From: Psammoneis japonica
Taxonomy: Eukaryota
Direction of reading: 5' to 3'
Length of the DNA stretch: 64,000 nt
NCBI GenBank assembly: GCA_008632985.1
Contig: QPGO01000004.1
Span: 186,001-250,000 of the forward strand
The notes beneath the pieces are model-generated. The model had not been told where the DNA came from, ran no database searches, and saw nothing but the letters and a program-made list of their open reading frames with translations. The position numbers and the translations under genes are program-made. How positions within the stretch are numbered: the stretch's first letter is position 1; every line of letters starts with the position of its first letter. Positions 1-61,404 of the stretch are shown one piece after another.

Positions 1-3000
1 ACTGCAACATTGTTGGATCACCCAAAGGCACTTCTGACAAGCCAAACTTCTCTTTCGTGCATGTTTTGAGAACAAGTTGTTTCCATGAGTTGAGAAGTTG
101 TTGGCTGCCCCCAGTGGACCACATGAGGGAACATGTTTTCCAGCTCTGGCTGAGACTCCATGAGTGATGCTGGGGGCCTGCAGAGTTTGGTGTGCACAAG
201 CTCTGCATCAAAGTCATTGGGTGATGAACAAATCAATGACTGTCAACAGCAAAAAAAAAGAGGCAGTTGTGCAATTGCACAAAATCGCTCGTGCTTGAAG
301 CACATTGTTTCTGGTTTGCCTCAGTGTGCTGCTCTTCAGATGTCAAAAAACACACCCAACCCACCATTTTTGTTCTTAGAAACAGCAAAAACAAAACACA
401 AATGGCTTCACAAAGTGGGGAGCAATGAAAAATTTTGCAAAGGAACTCTCATGTAGAAACACACATGTGTGACGTGCAGTGCATGATGAAAAAATGTTTG
501 AGTGATGGTGAAGTGCTGCGGGGCCCCACCCCTTGAGCTGGAGAGGAGCACATTGGATGTGTTTGCCAAGGTGATGGCTCCACTTTCTGCCAAGACAAAG
601 CATTTGCAGAGTGGGGCGGGCCCACCAAGGAGGTTTGGAGTGAACTCCCAAGTGCTTGCAGTTTTTTGTTCTTGCAAGTGCTTTGTCCCAGCACTGCTGC
701 TGCATGTTTTGGGGGCTCCTGCAGGACAGCTGTGAATGTCTCTGTTGCCCCTGTGCATGACCAACTTTTTTGTGTGCCTCTGTCATGGCAAATCAAGACT
801 CCAAAAAGGGCACAGCCAGTGCTCTCCTCATGGACATTGCTGTGTGGTGCTCCAACAACATCCTCATCCCTGAAGTTGCAAAACACCTGGACAGCACTTG
901 TGCGGCAATGTCCCTGTCAAGCTGGGTGAAATTTCTTAGGATGAACACATGCAATCCAATGGTTGGTTTGTTAAAATGTCACTGGACATGCCCTCAATGA
1001 ACCCACCTAGCTGGAAACCAGCAGCCCTGCCAGCACATCACCTGTTTTGCTCCTCTTCAAGAAAGAGACATTCAAGGCAATGACTTCACACTGGGTGACA
1101 ACACTTTGACTTGTCTTTCATGACAGATGTTGGGATGCAACAAGATCCAACTTGCTCTCTCAAGGCTTGCCTCACAAGAGCAAACGTTGCAGTTGGCACG
1201 GTGCATGTCTTCTTTAACCAAGATGCACAGCACTCTTGCAGGAGCTGTGGAACAAGTTCTTGGACCCCCATTTCCTGCCCAAGCACCATCTGCCAAATCA
1301 GGCTCAATCAACATCTTCAATTCTGTTGATGCACTGAGCAACAGCTGTGCACACTTTGAACAGCAAGACACCTGCACTGTCTTTGCAATCAAGCTAAAAG
1401 TGCCTGTTCAACCACCATCATTTTGATCAGAAGAAGGTCTCCAACAAAGCAGTGCTCCAGATGTTGCTTGTGTGCCATTTGCCAGCAGCAATCAGTGCCA
1501 TTTGGACTGAACCAACCACCTTGTGCTGGCTGATGGAGATTGCTGCTCATCGTCAGTGCAGCAACAGGTCACAAAGCTTTGCTTTGTGAACCAAGTTTGT
1601 GCTGTGATGTTTTTGCTACATGGCACTGCTGCTGACCAGTGGCACCTCAATTTTCAGCAGTGTGCAGCTGACTGTGGATGCTGTGTTCATCCATTGTGAC
1701 ATTTCTTTTGCAACTGTGGTGAAGACTGGGGTTTCACCATCAGAAATGACCCCACTGACAACTTGCTGCAACAGATGCACACTCATTGGCTCAAGTCATT
1801 GTGCATGATTCACAAGCTGCTGCTGTGATCCCACACATTCCCCCAAAGAACAGCAGACTCCACTGTGTTGTTGCTTCTTCTTGCTGAAGCAGCAGCTGCA
1901 GCACACTGAAGCAGATTCTTTTCCAAGTGCATCCAGCATTCTGCAAGAAAGTGCACCAGGCCCAGTGGACTCTCACCCAAAACAGGGAAATCTGTCAATT
2001 GCCAGGCCACTTCTTTGTTCCATTCAAGGATTGTTTTTGCAGCTCTGAGCTTTCATTTTTGACACTGACCAGTTGTTGAATGACAACCAAGAGACACAAC
2101 TCTGTCTTTGCCAAGAGTGCAAAGCACTTGAAGTTCTTGACAAGGGCATTGAAGAATGAACAAGCACACCCAGCTTGTGAGCTCAAGTGCTTTGAAAAGG
2201 AGATTGTGGAGTGTGCTTGGCACATGCATTCCTCAGTCAGGCTGACAGCCCCCAGTTGCTGCAGATGTCTCATCCAATCAGGGGAACCCATGTCACAAGC
2301 GGGGATGATGTGTCAGCACTGGTGTCAATGAACTCAGCAGTGCAGAGCCACCCACTCAAGACCCCACTCTAGACAATGCTTTGGCTCCATGTGACAATGC
2401 TTTTGCAAGCCCATGTGAGGAACTGGATGCTCTCTTCATGGACCTGCTGTGGATGATGACTGTCTCCTGCATTGTGCCTGCATGGCATCTGTTCCCCCAA
2501 GAAGCTCAATGTTTTTCTGAGTGAGGCTGCCAAACATCAATGGTGTTTGGTCTGCACTGGTGACCATGTTTTGATGATTGCCCTGCCCTCCTGAAGAACA
2601 GTTCCCACATCAAGGGTTTTCACATTTGCTTCTGCCAGCAGTTCTTGAAATGAGAGGATGTGTGGTGTGCAGCCACCTGGCATCCCAACCCTGGGAAGCT
2701 TGCCAACTGTGACAGAATGGACACCAGCAGCTTGCCCTTCCACTCACTCCTCTCTGCTTTCAAATTTTCAATCAGACCATCACAGCTGGTTTTGGATCTA
2801 AGACACAGCCCTTTCCCCACCATGTGACCAAGATGCTCAAGATGATTGTTGCACACAATGATGAAAGAGGGGCTCAGCACCAGTGCCGTTGTTTTCTGCA
2901 GACAAGTGCATCTTTCTCCAGACAACAACATGGTGTCTGTCCACGACTCTACAACAATGCCCACAATGTCTCTCTGACAATGATCCAATGGCATCCGTCA

Positions 3001-3339
3001 ATGACAGCAGGAGGGGCCAACATCTGGGGAGGGCTGAGGAAATGACTGACCTGCCATTGGACCTTTTGAGCTGGGTGGAGCCAAGCATCACAAGAGATGA
3101 CTTCAGCACTGCTGCCCTCAACTCTGTGCACATTTCAACAAATGTGCCATCCTTGGTTTCTCTGTCTGCTTTTGAGGTCAACACTGTGCAGTTCAGTGCT
3201 GATGAACATTGTGCACAGCTCAGTGTGGGTGCCCATGCACTGCATGCCAGTGGCTGAGACCTGCTCTGCTGCTGCCACCTGTTTTCACCAGCCAACTTGC
3301 ACCCCATCCAGCTCATTTCCGAGTGTCACCTCAACCTTC

Positions 3340-6300
3340 CATGGAAGACCTGGCTCCTAGATTGCAGCATGACGACCAACTCTGGTGTGACTTGCTCAAT
3401 GCCAGTGGGCATGAACTTGAACTTCCCAAGTGCTCCTTTCACACTGCAGAGTGGGACGACTTCTCTGAGTTCAGTGAGCCAAGTCTCCAGCCATGCAATC
3501 AAGACTTCTCCATGGAAATCTTTTTGGCCAACTGCTCCACCTCTAGATGCAGCACATGCAATTGTCTGCCTTTGAACCTCACAAAATCTTGGGACACTGT
3601 TCTTCCCCTGCTGGGACTTTGAAGAAACAGCAACAAGTGTTTGAAGCTGAGAGTGACGGGAAAGCATCATTTGTGCATGCAGCTCCACTCAACCACACTG
3701 AATCATGGAGATGTTGCCATGTGTGCTGTTTGCCATTGATGACCTTCGTCCTGGCTGGCTCTCACTTTGCCTCCAAAGTGCTGTTGCAGATCCAGCAACA
3801 TGCCATGTGAGTGATTTTTGCTGAATGTGGACACAATCAGAAAACACCAAGCTTCTAATTCTGTGCGGCCCACAATCTCTTGGAGGGGGCGGATTTTGTT
3901 CTTTGGATGTTGAGCAGGGCATTGCGCAACTGCAACAGTTTCTCAGGCACTCTCGTGGTGCTCAGCACATGTCACCAGATGACCAACCACATGCCGCAGT
4001 GCACATTGCCATTGCTTGGCATCAGCTGCATTTGGGTGCAGGAATCAGTTTCCTCAAAGATGTCAGCACCAGACGACATCCACATTGTGAGTCACTGTGG
4101 TTTGCATCAGTTCGCTCTTTCCCACATTGCATGGGAGGCACTGTTGCCATGTCCCAGGATGGGGTGTTGCCTCCACAATGTGACAATGATCAGTTCTCAA
4201 TGGATGTTGCATTGGAGTTGGTGGAATTTTTGTCCCGATAAATTCAGCAGATCAACTGTTGTCAGTTGTGCCTCAAGGTGCTCATGGTTTCAGACATTGC
4301 CTTGGTGGATGGTTGCCATCTGGATGAGTCCAAAAAGTCTTTGGTGACCCTGTTCACCTCAGCAGTGTTGGCACTCTCCACAATGTTGAACAGACCAAAA
4401 CCTTGTCACAAGGCATGGGGTCCCTGGACACGCTCTTGTGAAAAGTTGTGTCATGATGGATCCACCAGACTGCATGCTCCTCTGGGAGATTGGTTGGTGC
4501 CTCCTTTCAAAATGCAAATGCAAGCCTCTGCTTGTTGGTCTCCAGATGAATTGTGCTCACATGCAAGGTCTCCATCCGGTTTCAACATGTTTCTGGCCCA
4601 GGACACAGTTGCGACATCATTGCATCAAATCAAAATGGTTCCAGCTCCATCTGACTCATCTTTCCTGGCAGAGATTGACTCCATCAATGATGGACGTTGG
4701 CAATGCATCCCTCACAGGTCGAACCTGACAGCAGAAATGATGCCTCCTCCACCACCCAAGTTCTTCAACAATCATCTGCAAGCACTGCCCCTCATTGGGA
4801 TTCTGCCCTTTTCTCCGAGATGGAATTCCACATCTCCCTTGGAGAACTGGCAGATTGCTTTGCATCAAATCACCTGACATCAGGAAGCAACGGGTCCTTG
4901 ATCCTCCAGAATGCTGCTTTTGGGTGGACCATTGCATTCAATGGACGACCTTTGGTTGACTGTGCCAGACTGGTGTTTGGTCGAATGCCTTCCTCTTGCC
5001 AAGCTGAAGCACGTGGCTTTCTGTCCTTGACATGGTTTGTTTTCCACCTGCTGGAGTTTTGCAAAATGTCCTCTTGTGAGGGTGTTGACAACTGGTGTGA
5101 CAACAAGGCTCTAGCTAGACTTCTTTCTCACCCAACACACAGCCGTCCTTCCACAGATCCCTCTCTTCACGTGCACCCCGAGCTTGATTTTCATCTCCGC
5201 AAGCACAGTGCCAATGTCTTGTCATCAGATTGGGATGTTCTCAACAAAATTTGTCAGACCTTTGAGGCCATCAAAGCTGTTCTCAATCCTTCTTCCCTTG
5301 ACCATGCTCCCACTCTTGAGTGGGTAAAAGGACATCAAGACAGACATTCTCTGGTGGAAACTCTGCCTCTTAACGCCCAGATTAACATGCATGCTGACAA
5401 GCTGGCAGGTTGACATCAAGGTCAACATGACATCAACATGACAGCGGTGATCCCCTTTCCCCACTGCCAGTCCTGCCTCAGTCTTCAAGATGGGGCCATT
5501 GCAGCAGGGCTTAAATCTGCTGTCCAACATGCAGCTGCGGCTCCTGCCCTCCTTGAATGCATTTGGGAGAGAAACGAATGGGACAAATCCACCACAGAAA
5601 AGATGGATTGGAAAGTGCATGCCATGGTGGTGCATCGGCACTCTACGAAGCATGTGTCCACCATCAAATTGACCCATGAGCTGCTTCCTGTGAGTGAGAT
5701 TGCTTGCTGTTACAATCCAGTCAGACCTCATCATTGCCTGTCTTCTTGCAAACATCCTGTGGAAGATTGTGATTGCATCTTACGGTGTCTGGCCAATGAA
5801 CCTTGGCGACGCAAATTTCTGCAAGGCCTGCAAAAATGCTGCAACAACATTGACACAATGCCTCCTCTTTGGGATCTTCTCTTGTTCTCTGTCGAAGCAT
5901 GGTTCCAAGGTGAGATGACATGCAATGATGACATTTGCCCAATGTTGCATTCTTTGTGGAGAGCCCAGTCAAAAACAGGGTGGCAACAAGTGTTCAACGG
6001 TCACCATTCCACCCTCTGGAGCACTTTTCAGGAGATGCATCTTCACAACACAGAGGACTGCTGGAACATTGTAGAAAGGAGAACTGCCCACCTCTGGCAT
6101 GGGTGGTGCAGACAGGAACAACCTGCATTTGGAAATCCTGGTGGGAGTTGTGGGAGGAGCACAATCAAGAGGTTCACAGTCATGATGTGGACACAAGGAA
6201 GTCATCTCTGCGAAGACATGCTGAAGCCAAACTCACGGTGACACACAACAAAAAACAGCATCTTGCCAAAGACAGGGACATGCTGCTGGACTTGGCAGAA

Positions 6301-6470
6301 GAGCACCAGTCCCACTCCACTTTGCAGACAATGAACTGGGTTGCCATGGCAAAACCAAGACTCAGAGACAGTCTCAAGAAAGCAAAGTGCTCCATGCTTT
6401 GCGGCACTTGCTCTGTGGCCAGTTATTTTGGCAGGGCATTGCCTTCATGTGATGCCTGTTCTGGCTGATC
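3340..6470 (+). mobile_element. Degenerate 5'-truncated non-LTR retrotransposon (LINE): C-terminal part of RT, RNase H, Cys/His knuckle
   Basis: Motifs across shifting frames: LQHDDQLWCDLLNASGHELELPKC, HKILGHCSSPAG, ILCGPQSLGGGGF..EQG. RNase H: SNGS..AAFGW..SCQAEARG..WCDN..DWD..WVKGHQD..NMHADKLA. Then C..CKHPVEDCDCILRC, QSKTGWQQVFNG and WWELWEEHNQEVH. Many stops and frameshifts. Confidence 0.85.
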
Positions 6471-7297
6471 CAGGCAAGCTTCTGCCACACTGAAAGGTGT
6501 GCTGGAAGTGTGGGTCAGCCGGTGCTGGCCTGGCTGACAAAGGAGTGACAGCACTCAAAATGCAGATCTGTTTTTTTTTTACATCCCACCCAGCTCCCTG
6601 GCAAAGGTGCTACCCCCTGTGGGTTTGGTTGTTCTTGTGTTCCTCCTGCAGAAACCAAAAAAGGTCACACTCACCTGCTGTTGTCCTCAGCTCCAGCCTG
6701 CCTTCTTGGTTGATGAGCATGCTTTCTACACTGCACCAAAAGCAGCAACAAGAAAGACTTCTCAGTCAATTGTCTTTTGAAAACTCATGACCACAGGACT
6801 TGCAAGCATGTTGCTGAACACTGTCTTCAACCTGGCCAAGATGTGGTTGTCAAGCTGCTTGCAGAATGGCTGAAGAGGCTTTTTGCTCTAAGTTCAGCCA
6901 GCAAGAACAAGGGGCAAAGCAGTTGCTGAGCAACTTGGGCCATTTGTTGGTGGCCAGGAGTCACTTCTGTGAAGAGAGCAGCACACAACAGACAGGAGCT
7001 CAGAAGGGTCTTGGCCCAACAAACAACCCCCCCTGAGGAGCTTCTTGACTGAGGCAGGGGATCTAAACTGAAAAGCCAGAGCTGGCAGAGTCAAAAGGGT
7101 GCAAGAAGTTGTGGACAGTTCAGAGCAGTGTGCAGTGCACACCTGGTGGTTCATGCAACACAATCTGCTGCCTTGGGCTGCCCCCAGAATTAAGTCTTCA
7201 ACAAAAACTTCAGCGGTGGTTGGCACATGAGGAATCACACCACGTTGGCTGCAGAGACAGGTGCACAGTTGCTCCAGTGATCAACCACAGCAGCAGT

Positions 7298-7359
7298 TGA
7301 GCCAGCCAGCAAGTGTGGTGGTGACTTTTGAGCTAGCCAGCAAGTGTGGTGGTGACTTG
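7298..7359. repeat. 31-bp direct tandem repeat x2
   Basis: tgagccagccagcaagtgtggtggtgacttt vs tgagctagccagcaagtgtggtggtgacttg. The internal difference is CA vs TA. Confidence 0.85.
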
Positions 7360-7574
7360 TTGGTCCAGCCCACTCACAGTGCTGGCTGCATTGTTGCCAC
7401 AAGGGGTTGCTCACCATGTGGACTGGTGCTGGGAGCAAGACCTAAGTTTTGAGGCATCTGGCATTTGTGTGGAGATGACATGTGCCAAATGAAAGATGAA
7501 ATTTGTGCACTCTGAGAAGCTGAAAGATGTTGAGCTGATGCAAGAACATGGCGATTGACCAACCTTGTGTTCAG

Positions 7575-9150
7575 TCACCAGAGCCCTGTTTTCATCAGTG
7601 AGCATGGCACTGAAGCTTTGGCAAAGTCACTTGCCAAGCTGATTTTGACACCAGTCCTGAATTGTGTGGCAACTTTGAGAGCTGAGTGTGTGTGACATTG
7701 CCAAAGGAGGTGCAAAAAGGTGGAGTGCAGCAGCTCCAGTTGTCCAAGCAGAGCACACTGTGGCCTCTTTTGAGACCAGGCTGGCACTGGAATCACGAGT
7801 TTAATTTGTGCTGTGCTCAATCCACTGCTCATGCTGCTGATGGTGGGAAAGTGTGTTTGTTTTAACAGCCTCTCATGAGAAGCACAGAGACAGATGTGTC
7901 TGACTCTCAGCAGAGGCAAAAGAGCACACTGCCAACTCTCCTGCTGACAATGTCATCCAAACAACAAACACATGTTCTTTTAGAGCTTAACTCCCTCAAA
8001 GAACCAACAGCACTGTTGGCCTCTTTGTTCAGCTCACTTTATTTTCTCCACATTTGACAAGCTCTGGAGAGAATCTAGCTTGAGTTGAAGCTGTGGACAG
8101 GGCAGCAGCTCTTTTTCCAGTGCGTGTGTTGAGAGCAGCACATGAACAGTTGTCTTCTTGGTTTGTGGGGGGCTGCCAGCCATTGACACACACAGCACAA
8201 GCAAAGCCAGAGGCTCAAGACTGCCACGGACATCCATCTTCTCATGCTGGTAAAGACATTGGACACCAAATCACAATTGATGACCTCCAATGTCACATCA
8301 TGTTCACAAAAGAGATAAAAAGAGACATGACATTGGCACCATTCATTTCCTCATGACTCCTCCTCATTTGTCACCAGTGCCCTGTTTTTGTCTGTGAGCG
8401 CGGCACCACTGAAGCTTTGGCAAAGTCACTTGCCAAGTTGATTTCGACACCAGCCCTGGATTTTTTGGCAACTTTGAGTGCTTCATGTGCATGACTCTGC
8501 CAGAGGAGGTGCAAAAAGGTCAAGTGCAGCAAAGCTCCAATTGTCCCAGCAAAGCACACTGTTGCCCCCCTGTTTTGACCAGGCCGAGCATGAGTTTAAT
8601 TTTTGCTGTGTGCTCAGTCCACTGCTCATGCAGATGATGGCAGGAAAGCATGTTTGTCTCAATGGCCTCTCTTGAGAAACACAGAGGCAGATGTGTCCAA
8701 CCCCCAGCAGAGGCACAAGAGCACACCACCTGCTCCCAGCTGATGTCTCCCAAAGAATGAGCGTGCCTTTTTTCCCCCTTCAGAGCTCAACTCCCTTAAA
8801 GAAGAACCAACAGCGCTGTTGGCCTCTTTGTTCATTTCATTTTTTCCACATTTGACAAGCTCTGGAGAGAAGCTGGCTTGAGCGTCAGCTGCACGCGGGT
8901 GGGGCAGCTCTTTCTCTGGCATGTGTTTTGAGCAGCAGCAGTGCATCGACAGCCTTGTTGGTTTGCCAGCCATGGACACACAGCACATTTGCAAAGCCAG
9001 AGGCCAGAGGTTCAAGACTGTCAGGGACATCCATCTTCTCAAAAGCCATTGAACACCAAATCACAATTGATGACCTCTCACGTCACATCATGTTCACAAA
9101 GAGACAAAATGAGACATGACATCGCGGCGCCCTTCATTTTTTGACTCAGG
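7575..9150. repeat. Diverged tandem duplication of a ~0.8-kb unit (copy 1 ~7575-8365, copy 2 ~8371-9150)
   Basis: Collinear shared blocks: ctgaagctttggcaaagtcacttgccaag, ccacatttgacaagctctggaga, caccaaatcacaattgatgacctc, gtcacatcatgttcacaaa. Confidence 0.9.
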
Positions 9151-9417
9151 AAGAATGATCACACCTTAGGCCCTACAGTGCTCGCCTCCTCATGACTGCA
9201 GCTGCGCATGCGCACGCACAACGCACAAAAGCAAGAAAAGAATGATGATTGATGATGAGTCATGATGATTCGGAGAGTAGACACTATCTTATCAAGATCC
9301 TCCATGACGTTCTATGATGTTCGATTTGGGTGAGATAAGAACATCGTGTGCTACTTCTCGGATGAGTCAGGGCGAAACGAAGCCTTTTGTACCATGCCCA
9401 CTTTGAATCTTGACAAA

Positions 9418-10323
9418 ATGAACAAGTTCGCAGTTACCGCATTAAGAATATACCGATCGCCGACGTCGCGAACCATGAAGCTCCGATCTTTCTCGTCCCC
9501 CGTTTCGTTGACAGATCCACCGACGCTAGCGCTGACTCCTCCTGGAAACTGTCAGTTCAATGAAGACTTTCAGTCAGTACCACTGCTGGAGAAATTTCCT
9601 GTGTCGGAAACGACCGCAGTGTTCCGTTTTGGCTTGCCCGACTCCAACACTCCTCTGAATCTGAGCACGTGTGCATGTGTCCTAGCTGGGGCTCATTGTG
9701 ATAACGCGGACGAACTTGTCGTGAGACCCTACACGCCAATTTCGACAAACGAACAAGTTGGTCACTTTGATTTGTTGGTGAAAAACTACGGTGAAAACGG
9801 CCGCATGTCGAAAAAGATGCATTCTCTTGGTCCTGGTGACACCATTCAATTCAAGCACATCGATTTCAATGTCAAAATCCAAGCCCCATTCGCTCAAAAA
9901 CGCATTGGAATGCTGGTTGGAGGAACTGGCATTGCCCCTATGATCCAGGCGCTTCACGCAGTTCTGGGAGATTCGAAGAGCCAAACGCAAGTGTCCATGC
10001 TGTACGGCAGTCAGGTATCGTCCGACATTCTCGGTAAAGATTTGCTTGATAAATGGTGTGAGTTGCACAGTGATCGGTTGACTGTGACCCATGTCTTATC
10101 TCAAGAAGATGAAAATTCAAACTGGAACGGAGAACGAGGATTCATTAGTGAATCTTTGATCAAGAAGCACATGCCGCCTCCATCATTGGGTGACGACGCA
10201 ATCATCTTTGTTTGTGGTCCTCCTCCAATGTATGACGCATTGTGCGGGGCTCGTGATTACAAGGACCTGAAAGGTACTTTGAAGGATCTAGGATACGATG
10301 TTTCTCAAGTTTACAAATTTTGA
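9418..10323 (+). CDS. NADH-cytochrome b5 reductase, possibly with a mitochondrial presequence
   Basis: RPYTPIS (FAD binding), GxMS, GGTGIAPM and VCGPPPM motifs. ATG 9418 chosen; 9394 is also possible. Confidence 0.92.
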   Translation: MNKFAVTALRIYRSPTSRTMKLRSFSSPVSLTDPPTLALTPPGNCQFNEDFQSVPLLEKFPVSETTAVFRFGLPDSNTPLNLSTCACVLAGAHCDNADELVVRPYTPISTNEQVGHFDLLVKNYGENGRMSKKMHSLGPGDTIQFKHIDFNVKIQAPFAQKRIGMLVGGTGIAPMIQALHAVLGDSKSQTQVSMLYGSQVSSDILGKDLLDKWCELHSDRLTVTHVLSQEDENSNWNGERGFISESLIKKHMPPPSLGDDAIIFVCGPPPMYDALCGARDYKDLKGTLKDLGYDVSQVYKF

Positions 10324-24816: not shown

Positions 24817-26023
24817 GTGCAAGAGAAAGAAGCTTCTTTTCGAAGAAAGGGGGACGCGTGTCTTTCTTCAGCAAGCGTTCAAAATAATGTCTGAAGAAAA
24901 GGAACGTGATGTCATATTGGCTGATTCAATCTGATGAGAGGGACAAAAGTTGTAATGTGAATGTAAATATTAAGGCGGTTCTTAATTGCAGCCTTCTTTA
25001 TGAATATCGCAGTCCTTGTCTCTCTAAAGGCAGTGCTACATAGCTTGCGTATGCTACGATTGCACTAGCGTGAGTCAGGCGATCACGAGGCTCCCCGTCT
25101 CTGACTCTGACAATGAAGCCTGCAGAGAGAAACTAGAACAGTGACGTTAGATACGGTAGATGCATGACATAGAGATGGAACCATTTCCATCAAATTTTCT
25201 CAGTGGACGAATCAGCATTTGCACTCGATAACAACAGAATGAAGGCACACAAGAAATATATGCCATGATTTCAGAAGGAATCCGACGTATTTGGTTCGTG
25301 CTTGAATCTTCATTTTCGTCTTGCGTCAACATGAGCTAGCGATACCAATAGTCTCCTTACCTATAGTATAGGCCTACGGCTCAATTCATTTGAGTCACTT
25401 GCGTTGATTTGGTGCTTGGTGTTCCGACAGTAGTGTCTCTTCGAAATTTTCCGCGTGCCTGTACAAGCTTCACTAGAGTGGACTCGCCGGTTTTCAAAGA
25501 GTTTGAGCTGCCCCATCTTCACATATCCTCCTTGCTCTACATATTTGATTGCTCGATTTGTCATCCCATAAGCTCATGAGCCTGTTTTCATCGTCATTCT
25601 CATTACAACTTGAATCGGGGTGAAGGAAAGAATAGTTGTTGAGGACATCATTTTACCCTGAATCATTTCTCGTCTAGCGCAAAGAGCAAGATGATGGGCT
25701 TGGAAGGACCACTTACTAGCACGATCATCTCACTACGGTACGTCTTTCCGACATAGTCAGCGTGACGAAAAGCAAAATGAGAATCAAGGATCAAACTTCA
25801 GGCTTGCGGAAGAAGACCAGACCAAAAGCGCGCGACAAGAGCGCGCAAAAGTTTGAAAAATGGATCAACGTGCGATTTGTAGGGTGGTCTACACGTCGTA
25901 GAACGTACGTGAAAAGCCAGTACAGACCGCGGCGCCGCCAAACAATGCCGTTGCTTCGAGAGAGGCTCACAATTCGAACAAAGCCTCGATTTGTTACCGT
26001 TCTTCAACAAGCTCATCCGCAAC

Positions 26024-26814
26024 ATGATCTTCTCCATCAAGTCCATTGCCATCCTTTCCCTGGCGACCATCGCCATCTCCGGTACTTCGGCCATCAAAGG
26101 CGGTAAGTGTCGGAGACCATTCGCTCGCGTTCCGTGACGCTTGTGTTGCAAACGAAACGCCTTTTCAAATAGAACCGTTTTTTGCCGTTGCACTTTGCGT
26201 CCTTCTTGTTGTGAGTTTCTCGCTATGAAGCAAGCTGTCCTCTCACCATCTGCACTTGTCTCCCTCCCATGTACACAGGTTCTCGCGACGGAAACGCTTT
26301 GCGTGCCGTTCACAACGAGCGCTCCCTCCACGCGAAGGGTGAAGGGAAGGGCCATCACTTTCCCAAGGGTCATTCCGATCACCGCGAGCTGTTTCTTGAT
26401 GTCAAGCTTGCCGAAGGAGAGACCGAGATCGTTCTCGAGAACGGACCCATGCTTGTCTTTGCCGAGTGCGACGAGAACGGCACCAGCTTGGTTCTCAACA
26501 TGCAGTCAGAGGAAGACCTCTTGGTCTTTGGCGATACAAGCGAGGATAACAACCTTGAAGATCCGCCTCTTGACGACCAGATCCTTCCCGCTGGTACACT
26601 CCTCGCCAGGGAGCTTTGGGCCAAGTCTACCGACGATCAAGGGAATGACGTGAATGACGGAGCGGTGTGGGCGAACGGATACTACATTGGGTGGAACGGC
26701 GATTCCACGATTGGAATCCATCGCTCCAACGCTTCGGACTTGTCTCTTGCCGGAGACAACGTCAACTGCCTCCTTTCGGGGTTGCTCTACTACGTGCATC
26801 CCGATGACTGCTAG
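26024..26814 (+). CDS. Secreted acidic protein of unknown function, copy 1 (exons 26024-26102, 26279-26814)
   Basis: Signal peptide MIFSIKSIAILSLATIAISGTSA. A phase-1 gtaagt..acag intron joins in frame to the 26269 ORF. Confidence 0.85.
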
Positions 26815-27014
26815 ACCGGCAGTAGCAGTCCACAGGCTGGTTTCCAGATCAAAGGAACACGTAGCGTAGTGCTTTAGAAGCATCCCTAATCATCGTAGCA
26901 ATGATTTTGAGAGACTTCCCTTTCACCATGTGTCGATAAACGGTATCCATGTAACCTCCAATAAGAACAATATCGTAGAAAGTCGAGTGCAGGTCCGTAA
27001 CTCGCTCTGGGATA

Positions 27015-27325
27015 CTCTGCGATCTTGTCCAACATGATCACGGACGTGAACGCTTCTCGGGGCACGTTGACTTTGCCCATATTCGCCATTCTTTTCTTGC
27101 CTTTGGCTTGCTTCTGTAAAAGCTTCTTCTTTCGAGACAGATCTCAACCATAGTATTTGGCAAGGACATCCTTACGTATTGTGGACATTACTTCGGAAGC
27201 AATTGGTTTGACTCCAATGCATACTTGGATCGGAACCTTGAAGAGTTGTCTCGGAATAAATTCCTTGAGACTCTTCGTCAGCCTTCGTCAAACTGCTTGT
27301 GCAGCATCTCAGTGAACAATTCACG
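27015..27325 (-). pseudogene. Diverged duplicate of the EF4/GUF1 3' end
   Basis: Matches 29275-29585: [22 protein letters not shown] vs [22 protein letters not shown]. No 5' portion is present. Confidence 0.88.
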
Positions 27326-28280
27326 CCAATGGTTCTTAGTTGCAGCCTTCTTTATGAATATCGCAGACCTTGTCTCTCTAGAGTTTGCGTGGAGCTACCA
27401 TTGCAAGCGTGAGTCAGTCGATCACAAGATACTACGTCTCTCACAGGAAGGCCTGCAGAGAAAAACAAGAACAGGGACGTTAGATACGGTAGGTGCTTGA
27501 ACTAGAGATGGAATCATTTCCATCAAATTTCCTTAATAGTCGAATCAGCATTTGCACTCGATAACAACAGAATGAAGGCACACAAGAAATACTGTATGTG
27601 CCATGATTTCAGAAGGAATCCGACTGTATTTGGTTCGTGCCTGAATCTTCCTTTTCGTCGTGCATCAACATGGGCAAGAGATACCAATAGTCTCCTTACC
27701 ATTAGGCTACGTTTCGACTCATCTGAGTAACTCGTTCTGATTATGTGCGTGGTGTTCCGACGGCAGTGTCTGTTCGAAGTTCGCCGCGTGCGTGTATAAG
27801 GTTCACTACAGTGATATCGCCTGTTTTCAAAGAGTTTGAGCTGCCCCATCTTCACATATCTTCTTCGCTCTACATGTTCGATTGCTCGATTTGTGCTCCC
27901 ATAAGCTCACGAGACAATTTCATCAAGAATCGGGGTACAGAATGGAAGTCGAGGACATCCTTCAACCCTGGATCATTAGTCGTCTAGCTCAAAGAGCACC
28001 AAAATGGGCTTCATCTCACTACGGGACGTCTTTCCACATAGTGAGCTTGATAGACCGGAAAAAAGAGGATCAAACAATAATTGGACCAACCGCGCGCGAA
28101 AAGTGCGCTCAGAAGTTTGAAAAATCAGAGGTACGTAAGATTTGTAGGGCGGTCCACACGTCGTAGAATGTACGTGAAAAAAGCCACTACAAACCAAACA
28201 ATGCCGTTGCTTCGGGAGAGGCTCACAATTCGAACAAAGCCTCGATTTGTTACCGTTCTTCAACAAGCTCATCCTGCAAC

Positions 28281-29071
28281 ATGATCTTCTCCATCAAGTC
28301 CATTGCCATCCTTTCCCTGGTGACCATCGCCATCTCCGGTACTTCGGCCATCAAAGGCGGTAAGTGTCGGAGACCATTCGCTCGCGTTCCGTGACGCTTG
28401 TGTTGCAAACGAAACGCCTTTTCAAATAGAACCGTTTTTTGCCGTTGCACTTTGCGTCTTTCTTGTTGTGAGTTTCTCGCTATGAAGCAAGCTGTCCTCT
28501 CACCATCTGCACTTGTCTCCCTCCCATGTACACAGGTTCTCGCGACGGAAACGCTTTGCGTGCCGTTCGCAACGAGCGCTCCCTCCACGCGAAGGGTGAA
28601 GGGAAGGGCCATCACTTTCCCAAGGGTCATTCCGATCACCGCGAGCTGTTTCTTGATATCAAGCTTGCCGAAGGAGAGACCGAGATCGTTCTCGAGAACG
28701 GACCCATGCTCGTCTTTGCCGAGTGCGACGAGAACGGCACCAGCTTGGTTCTCAACATGGAGTCGGAGGAAGACCTCTTGGTCTTCGGCGATACAAGCGA
28801 GGATAACAACCTTGAAGATCCGCCTCTTGACGACCAGATCCTCCCCGCTGGTACACTCCTCGCCAGGGAGCTTTGGGCCAAGTCTACCGACGATCAAGGG
28901 AATGACGTGAATGACGGAGCGGTGTGGGCGAACGGATACTACATTGGGTGGAACGGCGATTCCACGATTGGAATCCATCGCTCCAACGCTTCGGACTTGT
29001 CCCTTGCCGGCGATAATGTCAACTGCCTCCTTTCGGGGTTGCTCTACTACGTGCATCCCGATGACTGCTAG
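28281..29071 (+). CDS. Secreted acidic protein of unknown function, copy 2
   Basis: Offset 2257 nt from copy 1, with the same exon/intron structure and only a few amino-acid differences. Confidence 0.85.
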
Positions 29072-29272
29072 ATTGGCAGTAGCAGTCGACAGGCTGGTTT
29101 CCATTTCAAAGGAACACGTAGCATAGTGCTTTAGAAGCATTCCTAATCATCGTAGCAATGATTTTGAGAGACTTCCCTTCGATCATGCGTCGATAAAAAA
29201 TGGTATCCATGTAACCTCCAATAAGAACAATATCGTAGAAACGTGGAGGGCAGATGCGTAACTCGCTCTAGG

Positions 29273-31457
29273 TTACTCTGCGCTCTTGTCCAACTTGATC
29301 ACGGCCATGAATGCTTCTTGGGGCACGTTGACTTTGCCCATATTCGCCATTCTTTTCTTGCCTTTGGCTTGCTTCTGTAAAAGCTTCTTCTTTCGAGACA
29401 GATCTCCACCATAGCATTTCGCAAGGACATCCTTACGCATTGGAGATATTACTTCGGAAGCAATTGGTTTGACCCCAATGCATGCTTGGATCGGAACCTT
29501 GAAGAGTTGTCTGGGAATCAATTCCTTGAGACTCTTTGTCAGCCTTCGTCCCACTGTTTGTGCAGCATCTCTGTGAACAATGCAAGCCAGGGGTGGAGCG
29601 ATCTCTCCGTTGATCTTGATGTCTAAACGAATCAAGTCGCTCTCTCTGTAGTCAATGATTTGGTATTCCATGGAGGCGTAGCCTTTGGTTCTAGACTTGA
29701 GCTGATCGAAGAAATCAGTAATTACCTCACCCAATGGAAGCTCGTACACAATGGTGGAGCGCGTAGGTGTCAAGAACTTGATATCAATGAGATTACCTCG
29801 TCTCTCTTGCCCCAGTTCCATTACCTTACCGTTGTATTCACTCGGTGTCAAAATCTCCATTCGGACATACGGTTCCAAGGTGATATCATCACGTCCAATA
29901 TCAGGCATCTTCGACGGCGAGTCCACAATTAGCTCTTCGTCTTTCTTCTTGTGGGCGACTTTGTAAACCACGCTTGGTGCTGTTACAATTAGATCAATAC
30001 CGTACTCTCTCTGCAAACGTTCTTGAACGATTTCCATATGCAACAAACCCTTCAGAAACAAAATCGGAAAAACGTGAGCAAAAGGTGGAAAAAAGGAAAC
30101 AAAGAGAAAAGTGTAGATCATACTCACAAGGAAACCCGCTCGGAATCCAAAGCCCAAGGCGCCCGAATTTTCTGGCTCGTATGAGAGTGCAGCGTCATTG
30201 AGACGCAGTTTCCCCAAAGCGTCTCGGAGACTCTCGTATTGGTCGGCATCAATTGGGAACAGCCCACAGTAGACCATTGGAACTGAATCACTGTATCCGG
30301 GCAATGGCACAATTTCTTTAGCACCATCAACTCCCTTTGCTGCTGCCTTGTATTCGCTTGCAAGGCAGATTGTGTCACCGACACGTGCATCAAGCACGTC
30401 TTTGATACTTCCGCACAAATAGCCGACTTCGCCAGCGCGCAGCTCATCAACCTGCACCTGCGTAGGCGTCATGACACCCACTTCAGTTACCTCATGTTCG
30501 GCTTGGGACGCCATGAAGCGACATTTTTCACCTTTCTTAACGGCTCCATCGACAACGCGGAAAAATACTATTACACCACGGTAGGCATCATAGTACGAAT
30601 CGAAAATCAGGGCCCGAAACGGTTGGTCTGGGGTAATTTCTGGTGGTGGGACGTACTCCACAATTGATTCCAAGATATCGTCAATCCCGATACCCGACTT
30701 CGCACTGGCCTTGACAATATTCGACGTGTCCAAACCTATTGTTGTCTCGATTTCCTCTTTTACACGATCTGGATCTGCAGCTGGCAAATCAATCTTGTTG
30801 AGAATGGGAATTATTTCAAGGTCATTCTCAAGCGCCAAATAAACATTTGCAAGAGTCTATGCAATGGCAGAAGAACCAAATATGAGAGGGAAATCATAGA
30901 ACATTTTTGCAGTCGAGAAACCCATCACATAAACATACCTGCGCCTCGATGCCTTGAGAAGCGTCGACAACAAGGAGAGCACCCTCGCACGCCGCTAGAC
31001 TTCTAGAAACTTCGTAGGAGAAATCTACGTGACCAGGAGTATCAATCAGATTCAGAGTGTAAACTTTGCCATCCTTTTTCGAAGTGTAGAGTACCCGAGC
31101 TGCCTGTAACTTGATTGTGATTCCTCGTTCTCGTTCGATGTCCATGTTGTCCAACAACTGTGCCTCCATGTCTCGTTGCGCCACCGTTTCTGTTGTTTCC
31201 AACAGACGATCAGCCAGAGTAGACTTTCCATGATCGATGTGTGCAATGATACTGAAATTCCGAATCCGAGTTGCATCGTATTCTAACCCACTCGAAGTTG
31301 TTGACTTTTTCGTAGAAGTGTCGGCCATGTAACGAGACGTTGATGATCTTTTGAACGCCATTTGTCTTGCGGCGCGAGGAACCAATGCGCAGCCATTTTG
31401 TACTAGCAATAGAATAAACGGCACCAAACAGTAGCTTTTTCGACCAAGAGGCAACAT
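29273..31457 (-). CDS. GUF1: Translation elongation factor 4 (LepA/GUF1), likely plastid-targeted; introns ~30858-30938 and ~30054-30128
   Basis: [53 protein letters not shown] and [19 protein letters not shown]-terminal signal peptide. Confidence 0.96.
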
Positions 31458-49320: not shown

Positions 49321-49506
49321 CTTAAAAGCGGAGCTCGTTCAAGCCGACGTCATCCAACGGTCGGCACGGAAAACCGTTAGCCGTTAGCACATGAATCGCC
49401 AATCGCTAACGGTTTCCCTGTCTCTCGCCACATTTTTCCTTCCACCACGAGAGAACAGCTCATAATCTAGACGATCACTCGCTTTTCACGCCGCTCCACT
49501 TTTGAG
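49321..49506 (+). repeat. 5' LTR
   Basis: 176/186 identical to 57957-58142 by manual alignment, no indels. Confidence 0.95.
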
Positions 49507-49533
49507 TGGTGCTTCGACACGTTATTCGAACAC
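49507..49533 (+). other. tRNA primer-binding site
   Basis: TGGTGCTTCGACACGTTATTCGAACAC lies directly after the LTR. Its reverse complement ends in ACCA and contains GTTCGAAT (T-loop-like). Confidence 0.8.
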
Positions 49534-49555
49534 ATCATCTTCCGTCAACATAACC

Positions 49556-52500
49556 ATGGCCGATCAACCGCCGGCCAAACGCGCCAAAACGCAATCCACC
49601 GACGAACACCTCGCCAATCCCCTGTCCAAAACTTTCATCCCGAAACAGCGCATGTCCTGCACGCATGGACGAATCACCTTCTCTTCTTGTCCCCCCATCA
49701 CCGCCGAAATGGGCGATGCCGAACGATGCTCAGCATTCAACATCAATGAAAATGCCGTCAATGGCACGTCCGGACTCACTCATGCCAACCGTCTCACAAT
49801 CATGGGCAATCTAACGAACACCATCAGCCTCGTCGAAGTTAAAACCAACGAATTCAAGACAACGGGCAAATCCTGCCTCAAGCAACCGGCCAACCTGACA
49901 GTGCTGTCCCACCACAACGCAGCAGGCAACCTCATCCAAAATTGCCTTGACGACGAAGGGCAACTCAAGCCGATCCAAGACGGACCCGTGGCAAATTGCC
50001 GCCCCGACGGAATCATGTGCGCCAAAATCAGAGGCATCATCAACCTTACGTCCCTCAGCGAATCAGTCAGGAATCCCACAATCACATTCTTTATTCGTTT
50101 GCCTGTGGAGAACGCAAACGCAACCAACGCCGCCGGAAACCAAGTGAATCTGTTCACCTTTGGTGGCCCAAGCAACTGCATCACATTGGACAATCAAGCT
50201 CATCAGGATGTCATCCACAACAATGACGATGACGCCATCCAAGAGCCATTCGATCTCCAAGCACCTGATTTCACTGACCCCGACGAAGCAACTGTCTCCA
50301 CCGAAGCAAAAGGCATGAGGATTGACGCTCTCATCACCCAAGCAGGGTGCGAGACCATCCCAAATGACGTTTTTACGTCCATCGCGCCCACATTCGTGGA
50401 CGACCCATTCAAAATGCTCAGCCGAGTCCATCAAACCACTGCCCAGTCAGACGGGACAACCATCTCATCGACAGCACAAGAATGTCGCGACAATTGCAAT
50501 GTCGCACTCAGTGCCCTCCCCAATCACCCAGACTCCGAATGGCAGTCCAATCCTCTTCGCACATTCGTGGACAATCTCGATCCCCAGATTCGTCAAAAGA
50601 TGGAGTCGGACGGATTCCGACGTCATGTGGAAACGGTGTCACTCCGTTGTTCCAACCAAACGAACCTCATCCAGGAGGCGTTCTCAGCCGCCAAGAAAGC
50701 AGAATCAGCTCTTGCGGCGAATCGTCTCTTCATTCAAGGCGAACTCCATAAGACTCACGGCTTCGCTGCCGTTGTTCAGCAATCCCCGGCGTCCTCATCC
50801 CTTACATCCATGAATGCTCCCACTCAACAGCAAGCCACAGTCAATCACAGCGCAGCCGAAACTGCTCTCAATCGCTGCAAGACCGCAGGCAAAGGCTGTT
50901 GGGGCTGCGGATCAACCGATCATCTGCATTGTGAAGCCAAAACCAAAACCATCACTTGTCCCAGGGGTGCAGAACCAGAAATCCAGAAGAACGCAGAAAT
51001 CGTCCACAAGGACTTTGTTGAACGCATGAAAAAGCGCCGAAACGGAAACCGTCGCCGTGCCCAAGGACAATCCAACGCAGGCAATCTTCTACTGTCAGCC
51101 TTGCTTTCCCCTCAATCTCGGACCGGAGGGAACGATGAAATCACGAAGCTCATGCTCAGCTCCATCAAACAGTTGCCACTTGGAAAGGACAACGGTGAGG
51201 AGGAGAAGGAAAAAGAAGTGTTCACGTTCCACTCCTGCGTCCTCCAATCATCCACTCCGAGCAATCTACCGCAGCTGCCGATCCCGGTCAACAATGCGCT
51301 TCCCCACATCGTCCTCCAGCTGGGATCACCCGACGCTACATTCAACCCCGGCGTTCATGCCATCGTGGACAGCGCCGCTGCCCTAGTCTGTGGGAACAGC
51401 GACTGCTGGATGCCTGTCGCCAAGGCTTGTCCCGAGCTCGTCAAGAGCACCTGTCACGCGAAGGATCATCATTCGCCCATTGTCCTCTCCGGCGTCGTTC
51501 AGAAGGATGACAAAACGAAAGTTGACGCATCTACCAACCTTCCCGCAGTTCTAGAATTTTTCATGCCATGCATGACGAAGAACGGTCAGCCTACGTCACT
51601 GAAGATCGCAGTCGGGAAGAGCGTCTCAGTAAACTGCATCATCGGAATGAGCTTCATCTCGACAGCTCAACTCGTCATGGATTTCTCCAACAATGTCATC
51701 GAGTCCAAACTTCTGGAATGCGAACCATTTCCAGTCGAATGTCGCACCCCATCATGCTCGACACCGAAGATCATCCCTCGCACGGAACCGGTGTCCACAC
51801 CGAGCTTGATTTCGATCAAGCAACAACTTTCCGATGTTGACAGGTTCATCACGAACTGCTCATACGATGACAAACCTCGTGCAGAAATCCTCACCAACTC
51901 GACTTCATCACGAGTCAAGTTCAACCTCGGTCCATCAACGGCCACACTTTCTGGTCAGTGCTGTCCTGTGCCCAAACCTCTGTCGCATTCCATGATGTCG
52001 AATCAACACATCAAGCCAATCAGTTGCATCATGCAAATCACTAAAATTGCTTGCTCACTGTTGACGTTTCAAACACCATCTGCAGGTCATCAAGCACCTA
52101 CATCCCGCAAACGTCATCAAATCATCATCCCCAAACCTCCCCATCGAGCCAAGAAGCCAAATCTCTTCGAAGGACAGAACCCACCTGACGTCCAGAGTAA
52201 CTTCCAATTCCTTCATGAATCAAGAGTCGGAAAAGTCATCAGGAAGAATGCACGGCCGGCTAGGACCGACGACGACATCGATCAGAAATTTACATCTCGC
52301 GTTTACGAACACGACAGAGACTGTCAAGAGCTCCAGAAACTAAAATTCGATGACAACACACCAGAGCGAATCAAAACACGAGTCATCGAACTAGTCAAGG
52401 AATGCTGGTGCTGTTTCTGCCAAGAAAACGTCAAGATTCCAATCCAAGATTATGAGTGCGTTGTCGACACAGGGGATTCAAAACCAACCGTGGCCAAGAA

Positions 52501-55500
52501 CATCCGATGCGGTCTCCACGAAACCCCGATTGTGAACAAAGCCATCGACGCGCTCCTTGAAAACGGACAGATCGTCCCAGACACAAGCAGCGAATGGCTC
52601 TCTCGCATCGTTCTCGCTCCCAAACCTCATCAAGAAGACGTTACGGACATCAACGAGTTCGCACGGCGATTTTGCATCAGCTGCATCAACTTGAATCAAG
52701 TCACCAAAGTCGTCTCATGCTACATTCCACGCTGCAACGATGCCGTCGAGCATGGTTTTGGATCACCCAAATGCTTTTTCCTTTTGGACGCATGCAGTGG
52801 CTACCATCAGATCAAAATGGAAGAACTGTCCGCCGCTAAGACAGCCTTCGCCGCCCCTCAAGGCAGAAAATGTCGACACACAGTCATGCCCTTTGGAGCA
52901 GTCAACGGACCCACCACATGCGTCATCATGGCCTACGACCTCAAGGACAACTGGGACCATGAAGCAAAACAGATGGGCATCAAACTAGACGACAGCAACG
53001 GGTCAACCATCATCATAGATGACAACTTCGGATTCACAGAGAGCTGCGAAATCGGCCTCAAATGTGTCGAGGCAATTCTTCGCGTCGCTCGTCGTTGCAA
53101 CCTCTCATGGAAGCTATCCAAATGCTTGTTCTTCCCGGACTCAGTGGAATTCGTAGGGCATGACTTAACGCGCCAAGGTAATCTGCCAGCAGACTCGAAA
53201 AGCGGACTCCTAAAACGATGGAAACGACCAACGACTGTCCGCGACGCATCCAGTTTTGTCGGTTTTGGGAACTTCTGTCAAAGATGTGTTCCCTGCTTTT
53301 CGGACAGAGTCGAACACATGCGCAACCTTGTCAAAGACAACGAATTCGATCATAAGATGCTACCGTCCGAATGGACAAAAGAACTCGACGACGAATTCGA
53401 GGACATCAAATCCGCCATCCTCTCTAAACCCCCATTGCGTCGCATCGACCGCAACAAACGGCCGCACCTCCGCACCGATTTCTCAGGAAAGGGCATGGGC
53501 CATGCACTTCTCCAGCCCGGAGACGACAAAGAATCCCTCGCAGCCATGGAACGGGAAGATGCAGGAGGCAAATGCGAATTCGACATCACGTTGAGCGGTC
53601 TCCGACTACTTCCATGCACTTTCGGATCTAGATTGTGCAAAGGCATCGAACGCTGTCTTCACTCCTGCATGGGAGAGGGTGCAGCCCTTCGCTGGGCGAT
53701 CCACAAAAACTCTCACACAGTGCACGGCCGTCCATTTACGAACATCGGCGACTGCTTCGGTCTCCGATGGATCATGTTTTATGACGGATGCAACCCAGCA
53801 ATCACACGCCTCCAAATGGAGCTCGTTTCATGGTGGTTCACAATCGTCCACCGCCCCAATCGCATGGTTGTCGACGCCGACTACTTTTCCAGATGAGGAC
53901 AGGAAATTGACCTGGACCCACCACTCACAAAATGCATGACCATCGCTCAACAACAGCTCACGTCGAATCCTCCGGCAGCCACCGGAGAAGAAATGCAAGC
54001 TGAGAACATGCCAGGCTGTCGACGAAACACCAAAGCTTTGGCTAATGTTTTGACAGCCATCAAGCCCTGCACTGTCAAGAAAGGCGAAATCGAAGACTCT
54101 GTCATGCTCGAAAACATGCCAATCCTTTTCGGAGTTTCGAATGACGTGACACCAAAGTCTATGATCCAATGCAGTGGAGCAACGCATGCATCGTTTCAAT
54201 TGCTCACATGCTGCTGGGCCATGTGCGGATTCTCCTCGGGACACTTCTTCTCATCTTGTGAGGAACATCAATTTCCGCTCACAGTTGTGGTCGCCGCCGA
54301 TTGCGACATGCTAGGACGCAACCTCATGCAAGAGATCGGCAAGGTTCCAACCATCTTGTCGTCAGCGAACCATCTCTTGAACCATGTCAAGCGAAATGTT
54401 GTACAGGACCTTGAAGGGTGCTGCATCACGTCACCGCATCTGCCGGACGCATCATCACAACTGGCGTTTGCAAGAACGCAAGCTGCCATCATAGCGGAAA
54501 TGCGGAATCGATGCCAACTCAAGTGCTTTGCACTCCAAACAACGCCATTTTTTAAACGAACCATCCCATCGCAATTCAAGAAATCGTGTGCAATGGATGG
54601 GTGGCATGTCGAAGAAGACGAGATCCGATTTGCTGAAATGGGTGACGCGATCGACGACTCAGCGACATTTCTGTTCGGCTTCCACATCGGTGTCACAGGA
54701 CAGAAAGTTTCAGTTCAAATCGTCCGGCCACCCCCGACCCGTTCGTCCATCTCACAATTTATCCACAAACCCTTCAACTCCAAGAGCTGCGCGATCACCG
54801 CTCTGCCCGACACTGCAACCGATGAAGCCGAGGATGACAGATTTATGCTTGAAAAAGTGGTGCCTGCTCAACCACCAAAGCAGTCGGACGCACTCATCGT
54901 CAGTCATCTGATCGAAAGAGGACCCAGACCAGCGAATCTGTGCGGCACAGCAACACACGACGTGGATCACCCCGCTCCCCCCATCGGTCACTACAACTCC
55001 AACCCCTTCAGTCAAGTCTTTGGAATGTTTTTCCAAGATGAAGACTCTGAGACAAGAATCCGCTGCATTTCAGCGTGCGAATGCATGTCGTGTTGGGGGC
55101 TGGAAAGAAATCTCATGCACAGGATGTGCACGGACCCCCGCCAATTGAACCTGCTCACAAACGGAGTCCCAGGCAAGACAAGCCACGCTGTGCTGCAAAC
55201 CATGCACGACAAACTCACAGATGTCAGACCATCATCCACGGAACTCATTGATGCGTCACAGCAAACGGCTCCTGCAGCAACCGCTCAAGCATTTCTAAAT
55301 GGTTCCACAACGACCCGACTGCCCAATCGAGAAACCTGGATCCAAGAGCACTCACGTGACCAAGAAACAAACCTCATGATCAGAATGATCAACAACCCCG
55401 CCTTGATCAACAAAGAGCAATTGCAAAACATCCACTGCTGCTGTCGACAACTGATGCGAGCAGGCAACATCCGAATCGAGGACGAAATGCTCGTCATCCG

Positions 55501-57712: not shown

Positions 57713-57956
57713 CGGCAATCCCTGCCGCACTACACTCAAACCATTCCAAAATGGAATTGGCGCCAAAATCAATCTCAGGCTCAAAACGAACCACCCCCTT
57801 CTTTTTCTTTTTCTTTTTCCAATCGGGTTTTTGCATTCAAGCCTTTTTCCCGAATCATCACTCATCTCCCATCACAATCCTCGTGGTTCCACGTTCCGCT
57901 TTCATCCTCATCTTGTCAGAAGCTCAAGATTGGCCTCTGCCATCTTTTTTGGGTGG

Positions 57957-58142
57957 CTTAAAAGCGGAGCTTGTTCAAGCCGACGTCATCCAACGGTCGG
58001 CACGGAAAACCGTCAGCCGTTGGCACATGAGTCACCAATCGCTGACGGTTTCCCTGTCTCTCGCCACATTTTTCCTTCCACCACGAGAGAGCAGCTCATG
58101 ATCTAGACGATCACTCGCTTTTCACGCCGTTCCACTTTTAAG
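57957..58142 (+). repeat. 3' LTR
   Basis: Direct repeat of 49321-49506, ending CTTTTAAG and followed by AATT. Confidence 0.95.
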
Positions 58143-61092: not shown

Positions 61093-61404
61093 GGTGATTC
61101 TGGGCTTTTGTTTCGACTCGTTGTGCTCTCGAGGAAACTTTGTTTGCTTTTTCACACATTTCAAACCTTGGTCGATGGCGCAATTCGGCTGGAGTTTACA
61201 TGAACTTGTTAAATAAAAGTTATGATTATTTTCAGTTATGCACTTAAAACATTAGTTTCCCACAAGTGGGTCAGTTTGGGGCAAGAAGGATTGCTTGACA
61301 ACGGCCATTTCAAACTCGTGGATGGGTTGGGTCAGTTGCGGGGCAGGCGCCATGTATTTGACCGGGGAGGATCCTGTGTTCCCCTTGTTGTTACGGTCTA
61401 CAGT

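Follow-up and report, generated by a model that had tools for sequence, protein, structure and literature searches.

Fungal repeat-induced point mutation (RIP) erodes chromosomal transposons through dinucleotide-specific transitions, which also reach into the flanking DNA. A different kind of erosion has been described in Bigelowiella natans, where de novo TpA>TpG/CpA mutations arise in viral inserts at a rate per generation raised about 1000-fold and varying between lines, and where ADAT2 is proposed as the enzyme (Mettrop et al., bioRxiv 10.64898/2026.01.13.699255). Among adenine-editing enzymes, bacterial TadA depends on a YTACGAA motif placed in a stem-loop and no longer edits when the C at +1 is replaced by T (PMC12255301). 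The window analysed here, 64,000 nt of contig C5 (positions 186001-250000) in the 91.4 Mb assembly of the diatom Psammoneis japonica, a diatom identity being also indicated by its genes and by the named relatives of one protein, carries repeats and a retrotransposon that have lost nearly all TpA, and Copia retrotransposons elsewhere in the genome are caught at every stage of the same loss. In these the A of TAY (Y, pyrimidine; R, purine) is preferred on each strand, a rule that is measured rather than deduced from survivors alone.

Three stretches of the window lack TA: 1-9150 and 61600-64000, which are also without CG, and 49321-58142, where CG is kept. Depletion has sharp edges and is confined to silent or transposon regions, genic TA being normal. 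The first block, an old repeat block that begins about 7 kb upstream of window base 1, has a TA observed/expected ratio (O/E) per kb of 0.02-0.14, against 0.36-1.09 in 10001-50000, and at its edge (9150-9300) both TA and CG regain genic levels within about 200 bases. A preliminary description of the sequence had claimed that the surviving TA are mostly YTAR and that RTAY is almost absent. This is borne out, as the 44 TA left in 1-9150 comprise 28 YTAR (TTAA 11, CTAG 8, CTAA 6, TTAG 3), 10 YTAY, 6 RTAR and no RTAY. Genic DNA (9300-49300) has the opposite order, with 283 YTAR, 391 YTAY, 447 RTAR and 478 RTAY, so that a comparison of NTAN tetranucleotides between depleted and genic DNA finds the contexts unequal (chi2 64.1, 3 degrees of freedom, p 7.7e-14). 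The probability of zero RTAY among the block survivors by chance is 1.6e-7, and the survivors also differ from the flanks of the block's own TG and CA (p 1.6e-8). The second block, which extends past the window end, retains 11 TA (YTAR 7, RTAR 3, YTAY 1, RTAY 0).

The same pattern is found at other loci. In 273 de-duplicated 500-bp windows selected on CpG loss alone, 483 TA remain, 292 of them YTAR and 10 RTAY, and the ten strand-collapsed contexts follow the order YTAR > RTAR/YTAY > RTAY with no exception. Equal depletion of all 16 NTAN contexts is rejected. Survivors of this kind could also reflect ancestral composition, or new TA arising from CpG/CpA decay or slippage, as no ancestral sequence is available for most of 1-9150 and YTAR stands slightly above the model prediction given below, TTAA most of all. 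Rates taken against intact copies give the same context order, however, and those intact copies carry 75 RTAY sites against 38 YTAR. An artefact is thus contradicted as the main cause and is extremely improbable, though it may account for the small YTAR excess.

Rates were obtained from six Copia families with 64 copies in all. Family A includes near-intact copies, and 24 of its matched copies were examined, with long matches on C22, C293, C2 and C556 and 50 unscored candidates lying outside the set. In 14 young Copia copies, scored against the state common to most copies, A>G changes were found at 88/1263 TAC (0.070), 72/1298 TAT (0.055), 16/648 TAG (0.025) and 13/879 TAA (0.015), pooled counts that are not independent and overstate events because copies share ancestry, the site-level and bootstrap figures being the most trustworthy. 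At other A the rate was about 0.002, CpG C>T was about 0.009 and transversions numbered 26/46497. Changes are therefore almost exclusively TpA>TpG and TpA>CpA, with TA sites changed 20-30 times as often as other A. A LINE-like subfamily gave the same rate order, and since its references are partly mutated, Copia family A was relied upon.

Survivors by themselves do not tell whether a pyrimidine at +1 or a purine at -2 matters, because in a duplex the base at -2 from one A pairs with the base at +1 from the other A. The direction of change makes this distinction. At 438 asymmetric sites the A of the TAY strand was more often changed at 272 and that of the other strand at 71, with 95 ties, and the bias is present in every family; the proposal that A in TAY is preferred on each strand is thereby supported by 272 of 343 decided sites. 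Per-context rates from repeat-family alignments, suggested in the preliminary description, agree. They were fitted on 233 sites in 17 full-length family A copies with 3-4 intact references, with an exposure per copy and 400-bp bin, site-bootstrap intervals and the exclusion of C27, whose insertion site is in common with C334. Relative to A = 1, the +1 rates are C 3.64 (2.67-5.71), T 3.28 (2.56-5.08) and G 1.33 (0.86-2.37). At the other fitted positions the rates are C 1.76, T 1.71 and G 1.27 at +2, C 0.63, G 0.50 and T 0.56 at -2, and C 0.50, G 0.69 and T 0.32 at -3. At -1, T exceeds A and C by a factor of 20-30, and G is worst. In the hot zones A>G reaches 0.60 in TAC, 0.47 in TAT, 0.31 in TAG and 0.24 in TAA. 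Outside TA it falls to about 0.03 in AAY, 0.025 in CAY and about 0.01 in GAY, and the pyrimidine bias at +1 persists at these non-T sites (CAY 54/2180 vs CAR 17/2613; AAY 51/1696 vs AAR 31/2148). Centred on A, the target is roughly A-A-T-[A]-Y-Y, with an approximately 3-fold effect of the +1 pyrimidine. Applied to genic hexamers, the Copia-fitted rates predict 21/9/10/3 survivors (YTAR/YTAY/RTAR/RTAY) for the window, where 28/10/6/0 are seen (p 0.053), and so explain most of its pattern.

The A>G change, the T at -1 and the pyrimidine at +1 are shared with TadA and ABE7.10, and a TadA/ADAT2-ADAT3-type deaminase editing single-stranded DNA at replication forks, R-loops or hairpins would be one source of such a rule. 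ABE7.10 favours YAY and disfavours AAA (PMC10188366), which resembles the +1 rule here. The genome carries a TadA-like gene on C38 and, on C26, one resembling ADAT2, the latter with N at the position stressed by Mettrop et al. In detail, however, the link to bacterial TadA made in the preliminary description did not hold. The UACG or YTACGAA preference is absent (TACG 0.33 vs TACT 0.35), TAT is struck about as often as TAC, and a pyrimidine at -2 is disfavoured, A being favoured at both -2 and -3. A stem-loop is likewise not part of the rule: strand choice shows no significant relation to predicted unpairing (rho 0.09, p 0.17, n 218), folding predictions being a weak test. The expected 5' C of ABE7.10 is also weak, at about one twentieth of 5' T and not above 5' A (hot-zone rates CAY 0.025, AAY 0.030, TAY 0.5-0.6). 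As for the genes, the C38 protein has a hydrophobic leader and a D at what is presumably the equivalent of TadA position 108, the N of the C26 protein is presumably the normal state in eukaryotic ADAT2, and no ADAT3 was picked out among the deaminase matches of the genome. With neither strand bias nor same-strand runs, as described below, a deaminase of this type is an unlikely source of the mutations. None of the enzymes compared fits the whole rule.

The changes might instead originate at the T of RTA, if an eta- or iota-like error-prone polymerase placed G across from T while silenced DNA was being repaired or replicated. Pol eta has a WA bias, five Y-family polymerase loci are present in the genome, and site-by-site hits on both strands would fit. 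Cytosine methyltransferases are present as well, and CpG loss is also raised in the hot zones (0.04-0.07 vs 0.006-0.009). Against a polymerase, AA is struck about 20 times less than TA, hot-zone transversions amount to 84/33419 with 15 of them at TA, and TA is nearly fully lost where CG is intact; in the hypermutable regions of Bigelowiella, every AT>GC change lies at TpA (Mettrop et al.). This origin is improbable, slightly more so than a TadA-type deaminase. Chemical modification of the TpA thymine, for instance its oxidation to 5-formyluracil, with subsequent pairing to G would presumably leave T>C/A>G changes like these on either strand and without clustering. It is very improbable, as the leak into AAY and CAY, where the +1 bias is retained, requires no T beside the A; no Tet_JBP match was found in the genome, an absence that is weak in a draft assembly.

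The timing of the process can be read from long terminal repeats (LTRs), which are identical at insertion within one retrotransposon copy. In 19 copies, two of which belong to one insertion, TA was lost only in the 5' LTR at 77 positions (TG 32, CA 45) and only in the 3' LTR at 18. Such unequal loss between initially identical LTRs shows that mutation takes place in the chromosome once the element has integrated, and that sequence identity or repeat pairing is not the trigger. Moreover, C334 and C27 are two records of one insertion in which TA was lost only in C27 at 76 sites and only in C334 at 6, so that mutation continued after the two separated. Pre-integration editing of transposon RNA or cDNA, or a RIP-like mutation set off by homology, would suit the fact that all well-measured families are retroelements and that ADARs favour 5' U. 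It is already contradicted by the LTR pairs, and the one-insertion records, the equality of strands (coding/template hit ratio 0.94, 0.82-1.10) and the TA-poor flanks of several Copia copies further render it highly improbable. Fungal RIP itself, C>T at CpA triggered by duplication, is rejected, as TpA is here removed and the LTRs of a pair are unequal. The two processes resemble each other in eroding transposons by dinucleotide-specific transitions that spill into flanks, while RIP creates TpA and the diatom process removes it.

Among near-identical family A copies TA loss ranges from 0 to 100%, covering every stage from intact to saturated, and CG loss is 0-15% in most copies whose TA is gone. 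Measured from the 5' end, the burden is highest at about 0.6-2.5 kb, declining toward the 3' end. In 13 of 15 copies the 5' part exceeds the reverse transcriptase (RT)/RNase H part, with two about equal and none reversed with the 5' part spared, a polarity that could be flattered by the location of copies via their RT (3') half; two further family A copies are saturated throughout. The first open reading frame of family A received no Pfam name, and 'gag' is assigned to it by position. Along a copy the mutated state clusters (0.2 at 10 bp, 0.09 at 300 bp), while strand does not. A site-centred test in six families and six distance bins found no same-strand correlation (z within 1.1). In young copies, private hits next to each other fall on the same strand 23 times and on opposite strands 33 times, and no strand excess per copy was detected (p 0.19). 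The process is local and distributive, unlike an enzyme that travels processively along exposed single strands. A processive single-strand deaminase leaving APOBEC-like tracts was rejected on these grounds, with one weak signal at 2-15 bp.

As a whole, these features are best accounted for by a locus-targeted mutator that would be an adenine-deaminating enzyme of genome defence, a reading that is held with slightly better than even confidence. The copies show that the mutator acts on chromosomal transposon DNA after integration, turning TA into TG or CA, and that it strikes the two strands alike, site by site and well ahead of CpG decay. Onset lies in the 5' (gag-position) part of a Copia element, from which mutation extends outward until old blocks retain only the slowest sites, YTAR. 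The chemistry is suggested to be deamination of adenine to hypoxanthine, by an enzyme possibly recruited to silenced domains and acting distributively on duplex or briefly opened DNA.

One lead candidate for this enzyme, put forward with more doubt than confidence, is a diatom-wide ADAR-like deaminase lacking a dsRNA-binding domain, encoded on contig C79 at 344.5 kb. The genome has two PF02137 genes, this one and an ADAT1-like one. The C79 gene (344558-345390) has HAE and PC motifs, and no dsRNA-binding domain was seen in three exons. Its relatives in centric and pennate diatoms contain PF02137 only, along with a conserved basic N-terminal motif, and for the Seminavis homologue the best solved match is ADAR, including the ADAR1 'RAICCR' stretch. 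Protistan ADAR-like proteins without a dsRNA-binding domain have been described, with Phaeodactylum having both ADAR-like and ADAT proteins and Bigelowiella an ADAR-like protein in the initial, inconclusive set only (Yabuki et al., PMC11946409, Table S8). The rule found here is like that of ADAR in that 5' U/T is best and 5' G worst, ADAR acts on duplexes, and a gene of this type occurs in this genome and across diatoms. To our knowledge, no DNA activity has been reported for protistan ADAR-likes, and the C79 gene is a lead only. A broader proposal, possible but doubtful, is that diatoms and perhaps other protists may use an adenine deaminase on double-stranded chromosomal DNA, possibly ADAR-like without a dsRNA-binding domain, as a heritable transposon defence seeded at the 5' end, spreading through chromatin and following the rule AAT[A]YY.

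Other zinc-dependent deaminases of the genome resemble what we take to be dCMP deaminase, RibD and base deaminases, along with one decayed copy. That copy, a deaminase-like frame (C151:67565-67717), lies in TA-poor DNA and resembles the zinc deaminase domain of L091:319-1791 (- strand), which is fused in frame to a 2-oxoglutarate/Fe(II) oxygenase; a copy of a host-type gene may have been hit too. There are also 27 cytosine methyltransferase matches (C297, C301, C10 and C28), several of them clustered and broken by stops and possibly transposon-borne.

The diatom process works like that of Bigelowiella, with which it may or may not share ancestry. In both, TpA>TpG/CpA changes fall on both strands and are limited to foreign or silent DNA, the end state is TpA-poor and TpG/CpA-rich, and transposon domains are among the depleted sequences (Mettrop et al.). 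They differ in supergroup, and in the diatom the process targets retrotransposons and repeats that are in many cases almost saturated, old blocks having lost CpG as well. The preprint measured de novo mutations, whereas the diatom process is read from existing copies. In the available text of the preprint neither a flank rule nor any mention of diatoms occurs. Literature searches, with most subscription papers outside their scope, returned no report of such mutation in diatoms. Judging from protein sequences, at least one further organism probably carries the footprint. Of 120 foreign Copia homologues, taken from a ranking that favoured intact proteins, 3 have Cys or His at 7-14 of 19 conserved Tyr columns, 21 at one and 96 at none. 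The members of one foreign cluster (P0138, P0132, P0186; best match in this genome 58%), in which Cys or His stands in for Tyr at most conserved positions, differ by C vs H at the same columns. A metagenome scan yielded 5 loci of Copia relatives, with the survivor pattern in none.

Several points weigh against the preferred reading of a targeted, adenine-deaminating mutator. No enzyme is tied to the mutations, and sequence alone fits attack on A or on the paired T. Human ADARs prefer 3' G as well as 5' U (PMC11334849), in contrast to the +1 G of 1.33 (0.86-2.37) against C at 3.64, and the substrates of ADARs are RNA duplexes or DNA/RNA hybrids (PMC5389660), an RNA strand being needed. Hybrids with sense transcripts should leave a strand bias, and none is present. 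ADAR-likes occur in Ostreococcus also (PMC11946409, Table S8). The 5' gradient is weak in families B-F, adding to the sampling effect noted above for family A. A second test gave a weak same-strand correlation of 0.11 (standard error about 0.04) at 2-15 bp, with nothing beyond. The shared ancestry of the copies, the small YTAR excess left by the Copia rates and the footprint in only 3 of 120 foreign homologues belong here too. Regarding Ostreococcus, we know of no such mutation.

Within the window, the element at 49321-58142 (+ strand) is an LTR retrotransposon with RT, RNase H and an integrase zinc finger, bounded by LTRs at 49321-49506 and 57957-58142. Its TA O/E is 0.08-0.25 with CG at about 1.0, which means that TA loss can be told apart from CpG decay. 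Compared with its C81 copy, it shows 432 transitions, 18 transversions and 95 sites with TG in one and CA in the other, so that the two lost the same TA separately; the TAY strand was hit 24 times, against 8 for the other. The element ends in CTTAA...TTAAG with a probable AATT target duplication, and it keeps long frames because TA loss creates no stops. In one DNA sequencing run its site appears empty and many TG/CA differences are seen; strains and copies are inseparable there, and the run was not used as evidence.

In the first block, a decayed interspersed repeat at 3300-6600 (+ strand) has many genomic relatives at 66-83% identity. It is presumably LINE-like, from an RNase H-like motif, and a Pfam search of its frames and of its least mutated relatives gave no match. 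A tandem duplicate at 7574-9139 (7574-8348 and 8370-9139, 76.7% identical) has 11 TG/CA-discordant positions between its copies, as expected if each mutated on its own. Adjoining the block is an unaffected host gene for an FAD- and NAD-binding oxidoreductase (9334-10323, + strand). A further tandem duplicate of about 2.3 kb (24977-29589, 87% identical) has roughly normal TA and CG, so duplication alone is not the trigger. Next to the depleted block at 61600 lies a 471-aa frame (59836-61251, - strand) with normal TA and what we take to be a tyrosine-recombinase-like motif, for which no Pfam or NCBIfam match was found.

So far, defence through A-to-G editing of the chromosome is represented by one preprint, in another lineage and with no enzyme. 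The diatom copies supply a fingerprint that any candidate must match in vitro: an approximately 3-fold advantage of TAY over TAR, a T at -1 favoured at least 20-fold over other bases, both strands, no clusters and 5' polarity. This fingerprint speaks against simple models of a TadA-like or RIP-like sort. If a natural enzyme with such properties exists, it would be directly useful for base editing. For the diatoms themselves, the process turns Tyr into Cys or His without creating stops, so that dead transposons look open, and it distorts the dating of diatom transposons.

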